Below, one piece after another: positions 34,100-37,162 of a stretch of DNA of 64,000 nucleotides (positions within the stretch are counted from its first letter, which is position 1; each line of letters begins with the position of its first letter). The position numbers and the translations under genes are program-made. The stretch spans positions 3,808,001-3,872,000 of the forward strand of contig CBDDFZ010000001.1 in NCBI GenBank assembly GCA_965227515.1, given 5' to 3'. Under the pieces are notes generated by a model. That model did not search any database. It saw only the letters and a program-made list of their open reading frames with translations, and was not told where the DNA came from. The DNA is from Alphaproteobacteria bacterium (GTDB lineage: Bacteria; Pseudomonadota; Alphaproteobacteria; CALKHQ01).

Positions 34100-35227
34100 A
34101 TGCCTGAAATCAACTACTTGACGCGCATTATCTTCGACTCAGGTGCGGTCGCGCAGACCGGCGACCTGCTGGCGGCGCGCGGACTGACGCGGCCGATGGT
34201 GGTGACCGATGCCGGCATCGTCGCCGCCGGTCTGGTGGCCAAGCTGATGGACGCGCTGCCGAACGAGGCCGTGGTGTTCGACGGCACGCCGCCCAACCCC
34301 ACCGAGAGCGCCGTTCACGACGCCCTCGCGCTGTTCCGGGAGAATGGCTGCGATGCGCTGGTCGCCATCGGCGGCGGCTCGTCCATCGACCTCGCCAAGG
34401 GCGTCGGCCTGCTGGCCACCCACCCGGCGCCGCTGGCGCAATATGCCGCCATCGACGGCGGCATCGCGCGGATCGCCAAGCCGACCACGTTCCTGATCGC
34501 GGTGCCGACCACCGCCGGCACCGGCAGCGAGGTCGGCCGCGCCGCCCTGATCACGCTGGACGACGGGCGAAAACTCGGCTTCATCAGCCCGCACATGATC
34601 CCGGATATCGCGCTCTGCGACCCGGACCTGACGCTGGGCCTGCCGCCGGGCCTGACCGCCGCCACCGGCATGGACGCGCTGACCCACTGCATCGAGACCT
34701 TCCTGTCGCCGCGCATCAACCCGCCGGCGGACGCCATCGCGCTCGACGGTGTGGCGCGCGCCAGCGCCTGGATCGGCCGCGCGGTGGCCGACGGGTCCGA
34801 CCCGAAGGCGCGCTGGGAGATGATGATGGCCTCGCTGCAGGGCGGGCTCTGCTTCCAGAAGGGCCTGGGTGCCGTGCATTCGATGTCGCACCCGCTGGGC
34901 GGGCTGAAGGACCCGGTGCTGCACCATGGCACCCTGAACGCTGTCATCCTGCCGCCGGTGCTGCGCTACAACGAGGATCATGTCGGCGACAAGTACGAGC
35001 GGCTCTGCGCCGCGATGGGGCTGGCCGCCAACGACGACCCCGCCGATGCCATCGCCCGGTTGAACCAGGAGCTAGGCCTGCCGGCCAATTTGCGGGCGAT
35101 GGGCGTGCCGGAGGCCGTGGTGCCCGCGATGGTCAAAGGCGCGGTGGCCGACCATTCCACCGCCACCAATCCGCGCCCGTTGCAGCAGCCGGACTTCGAG
35201 CACCTGTTCGAAGCGGCGATGGGGTAG
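34100..35227 (+). CDS. Iron-containing alcohol dehydrogenase (4-hydroxybutyrate dehydrogenase-like)
   Basis: GGGSSID, PTTAGTGSE, GMDALTHCIE, HHGTLN. Confidence 0.92.
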   Translation: MPEINYLTRIIFDSGAVAQTGDLLAARGLTRPMVVTDAGIVAAGLVAKLMDALPNEAVVFDGTPPNPTESAVHDALALFRENGCDALVAIGGGSSIDLAKGVGLLATHPAPLAQYAAIDGGIARIAKPTTFLIAVPTTAGTGSEVGRAALITLDDGRKLGFISPHMIPDIALCDPDLTLGLPPGLTAATGMDALTHCIETFLSPRINPPADAIALDGVARASAWIGRAVADGSDPKARWEMMMASLQGGLCFQKGLGAVHSMSHPLGGLKDPVLHHGTLNAVILPPVLRYNEDHVGDKYERLCAAMGLAANDDPADAIARLNQELGLPANLRAMGVPEAVVPAMVKGAVADHSTATNPRPLQQPDFEHLFEAAMG

Positions 35228-35352
35228 CGCAGGAATTCGTAGATGGGCTAACGGCCCTTGTTTGGTGGCGTGCATGAGTGGTCGTCCCTCAAGATGTCGG
35301 TGTCATACACGGAGTCGGGTTTGCCGCTCCAAGACATCGAGGAGAGACGACC

Positions 35353-36396
35353 ATGAACTACTATGCCGGGATTGACGTTTCTTTGGAATGGTCATCGGTG
35401 TGCGTTGTTGACGGCGCGGGCGGGATTGTCTGCGAGGCTCGTATTGCGAGCACGCCGGCGGGTTTGTTGTTGTGGTTTGGGTCTTTGGGGATTTCGGTTG
35501 AGCGGATTGGTCTTGAGGCGGGGCCGTTGTCGCAATGGCTTGTGCGGGAGTGCGCGCAGGGCGGTCTTTCGGTTGAGTTGCTGGAGACGCGTCATGTTGC
35601 GCGGGCCCTTTCGACGATGCCGGTGAAGTCGGACCGCTCGGACGCACGCGGGATTGCTCAGCTGATGCGTGTGGGCTGGTTTCGTCCGGTTCACTGCAAG
35701 TCTTTGGCGGCCCAGGAGATGCGGGCCCTTTTGAAGGGTCGCGACCAGCTCCGCGCGAAGCTGCACGATCTTGAGATGCACCTTCGTGGTCAGCTGCGGA
35801 ACTTCGGGCTGAAGGTAGGGCACACCACCAGGCGCAGCTTTTCGACACGTATTTCGGAGCTTGTGGCGGGGCATCCGGTACTGGAGGCGGTGGCGGGGGC
35901 GCTGCTGTCGGCACGCGATGGCCTGTTGCTATCGTTCACGGCGCTGGACCGGCAGGTCCGAGCGGCATCGCAGGCGGACGATCGCGCTCGCCTGCTGATG
36001 ACGGTGCCGGGCGTGGGGAGCATTGTCGGACTGACCTACTTGTCGGGAGTGGACGACCCCGGGCGGTTTGCCTCGTCGCGCCTGGTGGGGGCGCACTTCG
36101 GCCTGACGCCGACCAAGCGCCAGTCGGGCGAGAGCGAGATGACGGGGCGGATCTCGAAGGTGGGCGATGCGGACGTGCGTGCAGCGCTTTACGAGGCGGC
36201 GCACGTAATCCTGACCCGGCCGATCAAGGGCGGGTGGTTGAAGAGCTGGGCGATGAAGCTGGCCAGGCGAGCCGGCATGAGGAAGGCGAAGGTCGCGCTG
36301 GCGCGCCGGCTGGCCGTGATCATGCACCGGATGTGGGTTGACGGCACCGCGTTCAACCATGCCGGACCGGTGCGCCCGGCGATGGCAGCGGCCTAA
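35353..36396 (+). CDS. IS110 family DEDD recombinase/transposase
   Basis: GIDVS, GLEAG, KSDRSDA, GLTP..QSG. Confidence 0.95.
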   Translation: MNYYAGIDVSLEWSSVCVVDGAGGIVCEARIASTPAGLLLWFGSLGISVERIGLEAGPLSQWLVRECAQGGLSVELLETRHVARALSTMPVKSDRSDARGIAQLMRVGWFRPVHCKSLAAQEMRALLKGRDQLRAKLHDLEMHLRGQLRNFGLKVGHTTRRSFSTRISELVAGHPVLEAVAGALLSARDGLLLSFTALDRQVRAASQADDRARLLMTVPGVGSIVGLTYLSGVDDPGRFASSRLVGAHFGLTPTKRQSGESEMTGRISKVGDADVRAALYEAAHVILTRPIKGGWLKSWAMKLARRAGMRKAKVALARRLAVIMHRMWVDGTAFNHAGPVRPAMAAA

Positions 36397-36671
36397 TGGC
36401 AAAGACGACCGCCGCATAGGGAGAACCAGCACACGAGCTTCGGCGGGCGCAGACACCGGCCCGTCAAGCGCCGTCCCGCGCCGGGACGATGGATCAGGTC
36501 AGGCCGCCATCCAGGATGTCGCCTCGCACGAGAGCACGCTTCCGTAGATTGGACCGACCGATCCTCGCATATCCATCTTGGTGGCGGCCGTGCGCCGACC
36601 CCGTACAGAAGCATGACCCAGGCGCCGGGACGACGAAAAAGGGATTGACCAACAATGGCCCGTTACAGAAG
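36397..36671 (+). ncRNA. Putative bridge/seek RNA region of the IS
   Basis: 275-bp downstream non-coding end with short segments matching the target and donor junctions; exact RNA ends unknown. Confidence 0.65.
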
Positions 36672-36754
36672 CCTGGGTGGAGCGCAGCGGAACCCGGGTT
36701 TCGGCAATCCGCAAACAAGGTCCCCGGGTTTCGTTTCACGTCACCCGGGCTACG
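36672..36754. repeat. GTAG-family REP inverted pair (left arm interrupted by IS110)
   Basis: (cgtAG)cctgggtggagcgcagcggaacccggg ... cccgggtttcgtttcacgtcacccgggctacg. Confidence 0.75.
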
Positions 36755-36763
36755 GTGCGAAGC

Positions 36764-37162
36764 CTACCCCGGCACCACCGCGGTGCACTCGATCTCGACC
36801 TTGGCGCGGTCTTCCAGCAGGCTCCTGACCTCGACCAGGGTCATGGCCGGGTAGTGCGCGCCGAAGCGCAGCCGGTAGACGGCGCCGATCTCCGCCGTGC
36901 GGGCGGCATAATCGGCCTTGTCGACGACGTACCACGTCATCCGCGCCACATGCTCCGGGCCCGCCCCGTCGCAGGCCAGCACGGCAAGCACGTTGTCCAG
37001 CGCCTGGCCGACCTGGTCGACCAGATCATCCGACGCGAAGGTCCCGTCCGCCTGCCAACCGATCTGGCCGGCGACGAACACCATGCGGCCCTGCGCCGAG
37101 ATGCCGTTGGCGTAGCCGCGTGGCGTCGGCCAACCATCCGGCTGCAGTGTCTTTTGTGTCAT
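36764..37162 (-). CDS. RidA family protein
   Basis: GYANG, VFVAGQIGW, YPAMTLVEV, KVEIE. Confidence 0.9.
   Translation of the reverse strand: MTQKTLQPDGWPTPRGYANGISAQGRMVFVAGQIGWQADGTFASDDLVDQVGQALDNVLAVLACDGAGPEHVARMTWYVVDKADYAARTAEIGAVYRLRFGAHYPAMTLVEVRSLLEDRAKVEIECTAVVPG

Follow-up and report, generated by a model that had tools for sequence, protein, structure and literature searches.

A bispecific guide RNA as the probable product of the 3′ end of a REP-occupying IS1111-group insertion sequence

The question raised by this locus is whether an insertion sequence lodged in a REP element carries, in its own downstream non-coding end, an RNA that recognises both the target and the ends of the element. 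The window, that is the whole stretch of 64,000 nucleotides that was analysed, holds the element at positions 35243 to 36671, and the original prediction had read four short matches downstream of its transposase gene as the guides of a bispecific RNA aimed at GTAG REPs. Support for that reading came from the other copies in the genome, from relatives and from guides that covary with their DNA, and the locus is very probably an IS1111-group element whose 3′ non-coding end encodes a bispecific bridge/seek RNA. The element and its immediate surroundings comprise the following features.

35243..36671, + strand: insertion sequence, 1,429 bp including the right-hand copy of the AG core
35353..36396, + strand: transposase (recombinase) gene, 347 aa, with the GL-P----SG motif, PF01548, PF02371 and NF033542
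35249..35257, + strand: left subterminal inverted repeat, TAACGGCCC, agreeing at 8/9 positions with the reverse complement of 36657-36665
36657..36665, + strand: right subterminal inverted repeat, GGCCCGTTA
35238..35242, + strand: left target flank CGT and core AG, the GTAG head of the REP
36672..36700, + strand: body of the interrupted REP, CCTGGGTGGAGCGCAGCGGAACCCGGGTT
36742..36754, − strand: inverted partner REP with an unoccupied CGTAGCCCGGGTG site, read from the sequence

The limits of the element were set by 20 full copies in the genome, which are 93-100% identical and have identical ends. At the left junction, CGT-AG|ATGGGC, the core AG occupies 35241-35242 and the insertion sequence begins with 35243; the right junction reads TACAGA-AG|CCTGGGTGG, with 36671 as the last base of the element. 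Its sequence features place the element in the IS1111 group of the IS110 family. The transposase has the DEDD (RuvC-like) N-terminal domain and the IS116/IS110/IS902 C-terminal domain of the group, matching PF01548 (E 1.6e-12) and PF02371 (E 1.1e-19) in Pfam and NF033542, 'IS110 family RNA-guided transposase', in NCBIfam (236.5 bits against a cut-off of 140), and its translation contains GLTPTKRQSG, an instance of the G-L-x-P-x4-S/T-G motif. The non-coding ends measure 110 nt on the left (35243-35352) and 275 nt on the right (36397-36671), the longer one lying downstream of the gene as is characteristic of IS1111 elements. The subterminal repeats TAACGGCCC and GGCCCGTTA are set in 6 nt from the ends, with a perfect 10-nt version in relatives, and conform to the pattern of the group, with repeats of 7-17 bp and short extensions at the termini; the features of the group are described in PMC11187229 and PMC11208160. 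A search of a plasmid collection gave no near-identical element; the best full-length matches were about 67-70% identical, were annotated only as 'IS110 family transposase' and included no named insertion sequence.

The transposase leader is predicted to form a hairpin (35278-35353; −50.7 kcal/mol for 35244-35365, z −3.2) that sequesters the GGAG ribosome-binding site and the start codon against upstream sequence, and the 5′ arm of this hairpin, GGTCGTCCCTCA, is kept in relatives. As for ISPpu9, the modelled hairpin probably blocks translation of read-through transcripts.

The host genome, 5.52 Mb in two contigs, contains one internally deleted copy in addition to the 20 full ones. The open reading frame is open at 345-347 aa in all 20, and the insertion sequence at 35243-36671 is active-looking. 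GTAG stands directly to the left of every full copy (15 CGTAG, 3 TGTAG and 2 AGTAG), and all 20 are found at GTAG|CCYGGRTG in a single orientation, in agreement with the original prediction that other copies would lie at REP targets. The predicted AG core was likewise borne out, AG being the only sequence common to both junctions in 20/20 copies; insertion is site-specific and oriented and leaves no target duplication, as in the IS1111 group. Since the sequences farther left of GTAG are unrelated, the 20 copies represent independent insertions. To the right of each copy lies a REP-like repeat, mostly followed by an inverted partner ending in ...CCACCCGGGCTACG, the arrangement seen here at 36742-36754 and beside most copies. 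The uninterrupted site GTAGCCYGGRTG was found empty 114 times where base composition would predict about 6, and the consensus of these empty sites is CGTAGCCcGGGTGGAgCG.AGcG.AACCCGGG. One of two Y1-transposase matches in the genome (C1:1603806-1604379) is flanked by two inverted copies of the target site. 'GTAG REPs' is a fair description of the target because the copies lie at REPs, empty sites are in excess and the Y1 transposase is flanked by the site. At the corresponding spot beside the neighbouring dehydrogenase gene, three genomes of the same family had no REP and so allowed no comparison of before and after; in place of an orthologous empty site there are the 114 empty sites of the host genome itself.

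Some further features of the genome touch on this target. The Y1-transposase-like open reading frame (locus L107, G000:C1:1603786-1604440; 191 aa, PF01797 at 23.9 bits) lies between two inverted GTAGCCCGGGTG sites, which is the layout of a REP-associated tyrosine transposase, and on this sequence evidence it is likely the source of the REP family that the insertion sequence targets. The unoccupied CGTAGCCCGGGTG site at 36742-36754 (minus strand) is about 70 bp from the insertion sequence; the A-type guide described below would need an A.C mismatch there, and the genome has no A-type copy at a site of this kind. The deleted copy (L021/L022, G000:C1:998350-999209) keeps the first ~720 bp and the last ~150 bp, and thereby both ends and the donor-guide region; the target-binding arm and the gene's 3′ half are gone, and the copy could be mobile only with help in trans.

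The four segments of the original prediction were confirmed in the downstream non-coding end. Apart from one U.G wobble, segment 1, CCATCCAGG at 36507-36515, is the reverse complement of the right flank; segment 2, CGTAG at 36543-36547, equals the left flank plus core; segment 3, CCATCT at 36573-36578, is the reverse complement of the core plus the left end, its match running on to 7 nt (CCATCTT against AAGATGG); and segment 4, TACAGAAG at 36604-36611, equals the right end plus core. As RNA they give the following candidate guides.

36507..36515, + strand: right-target guide, CCAUCCAGG, pairing with the top strand of CCTGGGTGG; position 36513 is A or G
36543..36547, + strand: left-target guide, CGUAG, followed by AU, the first two bases of the insertion sequence
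36573..36579, + strand: right-donor guide, CCAUCUU, complementary to A-AG-ATGG of the circle junction
36604..36611, + strand: left-donor guide, UACAGAAG, equal to the right end plus core, with the covarying 7-mer at 36605-36611

Being identical to the left flank plus core, the left-target guide CGUAG would pair with the bottom strand. The target matches thus address both strands, with the top-strand match (36507-36515) 5′ of the bottom-strand match (36543-36547), which is the order of seekRNAs in IS1111-type elements (PMC11187229), and at the level of sequence a second guide pair matches both strands of the circle junction, as a bispecific RNA would. The left-target guide is the weakest of the four, with 3 nt and the core matched in this copy. 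An IS621-like handshake was sought: the two bases 3′ of the right-target guide show no clean pairing with core or donor in this copy, and the AU after the left-target guide equals the first two bases of the insertion sequence, as does CU in relative L077 with its CT left end; that position is mismatched in L052 (CU against AT) and in L076 and L074 (CG against CA).

The weight of these matches at a single locus was assessed in 20,000 dinucleotide-preserving shuffles of 36397-36663. A 9-mer complement with G.U allowed occurred in 2,207/20,000 shuffles, the 5-mer in 2,385/20,000, the 6-mer complement in 3,510/20,000 and the 8-mer in 30/20,000, so that singly three of the four segments are non-significant (11-18% of shuffles). 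As a set they are significant, all four occurring jointly in 1/20,000 shuffles and in the observed order in 0/20,000. Since three of the four matches are common in shuffles, the single locus is weak, suggestive evidence, and it is the sequences of the other copies and of the relatives that lend the guides their decisive support.

The fold supported by these relatives has a closing stem, a target-binding arm and a hairpin between the donor guides, with the helices placed as listed here.

36470..36643, + strand: conserved core of the candidate bridge/seek RNA, matched by the covariance model with 123 bits
36479-36485 with 36618-36624, + strand: P1, closing stem, 7/7 pairs changed on both sides
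36491-36506 with 36550-36564, + strand: P2, basal stem of the target-binding arm, with bulges A36496, A36501 and A36553
36518-36525 with 36530-36537 (36518..36537), + strand: P3, distal hairpin of the target-binding arm
36583-36588 with 36594-36600 (36583..36600), + strand: P4, hairpin between the donor guides, 6/6 pairs changed on both sides

RNAalifold on 28 sequences gave three helices, namely the closing stem, the stem enclosing segments 1 and 2 and the hairpin between segments 3 and 4, and the covariance model was built from the same 28 sequences with these helices and the outer pairs of the distal hairpin. Searched against 55 sources, the model gave 53 matches, in about 50 relatives; all matches in the relatives' loci lie on the transposase strand directly 3′ of the gene, and they include about 20 loci absent from model building. 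The share of paired cells was 89.4% against 74.5% in shuffles (0/500 reach it) and 26/28 base pairs showed changes on both sides in the relatives' alignment, counts that are biased towards the model by an alignment fitted to it, while three of the helices were obtained independently by RNAalifold. Sliding the partner by 1-3 columns reduced pairing to 28-54%. P1 provides a clear compensatory example, CGCAGGG/CCCTGCG in the L071 group, and in P2 both sides had changed in 12/13 pairs, with 92-95% of cells paired. P3 varies in length among relatives with the hairpin always present, and the covariance model took only its 2 outer pairs.

Whether the four segments lie in two internal loops had been posed as a check. 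For the target guides this is so, segments 1 and 2 being the two sides of the P2/P3 internal loop; it does not hold for segments 3 and 4, which lie in a multiloop, since segment 3 separates P2 from P4 and segment 4 separates P4 from P1. Such a position of the donor guides was noted for many IS1111 elements by Durrant et al. (PMC11208160). Burial of the segments in stems, named beforehand as evidence against the prediction, is indeed seen in the minimum-energy fold of the single sequence (−75.6 kcal/mol), where segments 1 and 3 are joined in a long stem, but in the covariation fold none of the four segments is paired. Forbidding pairing of the guides restores P1-P4 at −63.6 kcal/mol, which is 12 kcal/mol worse, and taken as a whole the non-coding end shows no unusual stability (z −1.6). 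Single-sequence folding misleads here about loop exposure, since its lowest-energy solution joins guide regions to one another; on comparative grounds the covariation fold is preferred and taken as the relevant one, and the single-sequence fold counts as contrary evidence. A conserved structure with the guides in unpaired columns, as expected of a seekRNA or bridge RNA, was thus found in an alignment that is model-fitted and with which the single-sequence fold disagrees. Rfam over 35100-36900 returned four chance-level matches only (E 1.4-8.1), all far under their gathering scores.

In this copy the closing stem could be extended by GUCCCG/CGGGAC (36472-36478 / 36627-36633), or GUCCC could alternatively form a local hairpin with GGGAC at 36483-36487; as both are conserved in sequence, covariation cannot decide between them.

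Covariation between guides and DNA was followed by scanning one genome per species, which gave 75 loci with relatives of 37-69% identity, mostly from Alphaproteobacteria; in most of these loci nhmmer found homology to about positions 60-275 of the non-coding end. With G.U allowed, the longest complementary run between the right-target guide and its own right flank had a median of 8 in 31 distinct combinations, against a median of 4 in 646 non-cognate combinations. Only a 4-nt run was seen in 5/31 (L040, L041, L060, L069 and L097), and the pair L031 and L035 differs by one guide base with a matching change in the flank. For the left-donor guide, with relatives' ends located independently via the subterminal repeats, the 7-mer equalled the element's own right end in 23/27 loci and a non-cognate type in 0/108, the types being ACAGAAG, AGAGAAG and AGCGAAG; the misses were L053 and three loci with doubtful end calls (L032, L073 and L075), which were counted as misses here and excluded from the left-target test. 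The right-donor guide has CCCAU opposite ATGGG in most loci, and compensated changes were found as GGCAU/ATGCC (L058, L085), CACCAU/ATGGTG (L040), CCCAA/TTGGG (L077) and GUAUC/GATAC (L080), with GGCAU/ATGCT in L053 involving a wobble and an uncompensated C.C opposite left-end position 5 in L036 and L041. For the left-target guide, identity beyond the core averaged a run of 2.2 (median 2) over 22 cognate cases, compared with 0.38 (median 0) over 456 non-cognate pairs, and the core-adjacent base was unmatched in 4/22 relatives. So short a left-target guide fits, at the sequence level, a REP that starts at GTAG.

In four loci (L041, L060, L074 and L097) the right-target guide is unmatched to its own right flank, and the flank of L041 matches the guide of L036, a sister copy from the same genome. 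This suggests insertion in trans by the RNA of another copy, or a later mutation of the guide.

Within the host genome the copies form two sublineages, position 36513 being A in sublineage A and G in sublineage B. All 7 A-type copies, which carry CCATCCAGG, are at CCT sites, 6 of them at CCTGGGTG and 1 at CCTGGATG. The 13 G-type copies carry CCATCCGGG, and 11 of these are at CCC sites: 9 at CCCGGATG, where pairing is perfect, and 2 at CCCGGGTG with one wobble, leaving 2 at CCTGGGTG with two wobbles. The association between the guide base at 36513 and the REP base T or C is significant (Fisher p=4.6e-4), as are the differences in occupancy, which for the G-type is 9/27 at CCCGGATG against 2/62 at CCCGGGTG sites (p=2.6e-4) and for the A-type 7/45 at CCT against 0/89 at CCC sites (p=3.5e-4). 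The site choice of the two sublineages is as base pairing at 36513 predicts. On these sequences, a division of the REP variants (T/C at the third base after the core) between the sublineages would amount to natural retargeting by a single base, and the two G-type copies at T-sites may have been inserted in trans by the RNA of the other sublineage. The covariation of the donor segments with the ends of the insertion sequence across the clade argues, for its part, for RNA-guided donor recognition in IS1111-type elements. Whether all three hold together, the split of REP variants, the trans-inserted G-type copies and the RNA-guided donor recognition, is an evenly balanced matter.

The donor side is where a different reading has most to offer, namely that the RNA guides target choice only, through segments 1 and 2, with the protein reading the ends via the subterminal repeats and segments 3 and 4 serving as scaffold or being leftovers of an end duplication. 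An 82-nt short seekRNA of ISEc11, for which only target matches are described as far as PMC11187229 reports it, gave better transposition than did the long form, and since this short RNA sufficed, a role of donor guides in IS1111-type elements is a putative one; moreover, the donor matches here are short, 7 and 8 nt, and the 6-mer alone occurs in 18% of shuffles. Against this, the left-donor 7-mer tracks its own right end through three types (23/27 cognate against 0/108), the right-donor segment and the left end have changed together in at least five lineages, and both donor segments occupy fixed unpaired positions beside a covarying hairpin. A guide RNA restricted to the target is accordingly considered improbable.

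Less probable still is a modular element in which the internal TACAGAAG box would serve as an alternative right end, comparable to the B/B′ boxes of ISPpu9 with its hitch-hiking ssr9. Modular ends are known in ISPpu9 (PMC12288879), and, allowing one indel, the box and its surroundings are similar to the real right end for about 14 nt. It is nevertheless followed by the same internal sequence in 21/21 element copies and is never joined to a REP, no left-end-like box comes after it, its two further matches in the genome have unrelated contexts, and a whole-genome search with the RNA model returned the 20 copies and the one deleted copy with no orphan modules. Chance resemblance, with the protein alone setting REP targeting and the downstream region being a 3′ untranslated region, would accommodate the three matches that are individually common in shuffles and a region matched by no Rfam family. 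It is the least credible of the alternatives and is excluded by the covariation: guides covary with flanks both in relatives and between the two sublineages, the structure itself covaries strongly, and all four matches in order occurred in 0/20,000 shuffles. The bispecific bridge/seek RNA is the reading retained here.

The anatomy, the covariation-backed structure, the guide-to-DNA covariation and the REP specificity are documented by the comparisons above, and the steps of a mechanism can be modelled on ISEc11, ISPa11, ISKpn4 and IS621, by analogy with which the RNA would be produced, be bound by the protein and direct strand exchange. A look-up of public RNA runs turned up none for this sequence. 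The element would excise as a circle, and this would bring the following box into a new setting.

36645..36650, + strand: TTGACC, likely −35 box, 17 nt from GAAGAT (36668-36671 + 35243-35244) after circularisation

The circle junction would thereby place TTGACC (36645-36650) 17 nt from GAAGAT and drive transcription of the transposase gene and the RNA. Relatives retain TTGAC, a sigma-70 promoter scan of the linear element found none, and by analogy with ISEc11 (PMC11187229) TTGACC-17-GAAGAT would act as a junction promoter. The RNA would then fold into the P1 closing stem, the target arm with its loop between P2 and P3, and the P4 hairpin flanked by the donor guides; within the internal loop of the target arm, the 5′ side would hold the right-target guide and the 3′ side the left-target guide. 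Together with the DEDD recombinase, it would pair with both strands of the REP head CGT-AG-CCYGGRTGG, and the same RNA would pair with both strands of the circle junction TACAGA-AG-ATGG, so that strand exchange at the shared AG core could lead to insertion without target duplication.

The closest published parallels are ISEc11, ISPa11 and ISKpn4, for which seekRNA was shown experimentally (Siddiquee et al. 2024, PMC11187229). According to that paper, the element resembles them in the transposase (DEDD and C-terminal domain with GL-P----SG, about 340-350 aa), in the long downstream non-coding region and subterminal inverted repeats, in a top-strand match that is located 5′ in the loop of a stem-loop, and in insertion without duplication, and it shares REPs as a target with ISPa11. 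It differs in its guides and in its target, the alphaproteobacterial-type REP CGTAG|CCYGGRTGG, and in that donor matches are indicated here by covariation, whereas target matches alone are described for the three elements in PMC11187229 as far as its account goes; their seekRNA is experimental, while the element here is known from sequence alone. With IS621 it has in common a single RNA whose four guides address, around a 2-nt core, both strands of the target and of the donor, and a junction promoter on circularisation, here as sequence potential (PMC11208160, PMC11208158, PMC13626964), as well as the REP target, IS621 inserting in E. coli REPs according to a title cited in PMC13626964. In IS621, a member of the IS110 group (Durrant et al. 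2024, Hiraizumi et al. 2024), the RNA is located in the left end upstream of the gene, and here in the right end; the guides come in the opposite order, IS621 has a CT core where this element has AG, and the donor guides lie in a multiloop instead of the internal loop of IS621, with no handshake guides recognised.

ISPpu9 and ISPpu10 are REP-targeting IS110-family elements of Pseudomonas putida with which the element shares insertion at a fixed REP position, often in REP pairs, and an AG dinucleotide at both boundaries (PMC12288879), in another host class and at another REP. A structured 5′ leader that masks translation is reported for ISPpu9 (PMC12288879) and predicted here. In ISPpu9, ssr9 forms a module apart, bounded by end boxes of its own, and the work described in PMC12288879 detected no hybrid junction promoter for ISPpu9; the element here is without an ssr9-like module. 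A bridge RNA of ISPpu10 is drawn in Extended Data Fig. 10 of PMC11208160. Every testable feature of membership in the IS1111 group and of a bridge RNA was found in the element, which by analogy would work like the published IS1111-type bridge/seek RNA elements.

No new principle emerges from this, RNA-guided IS110/IS1111 recombinases, bispecific RNAs and a preference for REPs having been in print since 2024, and as an RNA-guided insertion sequence the element is ordinary in kind, though a very clean case. What deserves attention is the one-base guide difference that tracks REP variants inside one genome. The value of the material is that of a natural data set, with 20 intact copies, 114 empty sites and two guide variants in one genome, which offers an in-genome estimate of the effect of wobbles and mismatches on site choice. 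The roughly 50 relatives define the RNA fold, and all four guides change with their DNA partners, which suggests the loop positions that are programmable in IS1111-type RNAs. As no Rfam family was matched, the set could anchor a covariance model for this IS1111 clade.

Two relatives depart from the simple layout. At L079:2767-2839 the RNA model has a second, partial match (E 3e-5) limited to the target-binding arm; it follows the first RNA at a distance of about 20 nt and differs from it in its loop sequences, and this may be an element with two target-binding arms. At L044:2599-3056 homology to the non-coding end occurs in tandem, as two nhmmer matches 253 bp apart.
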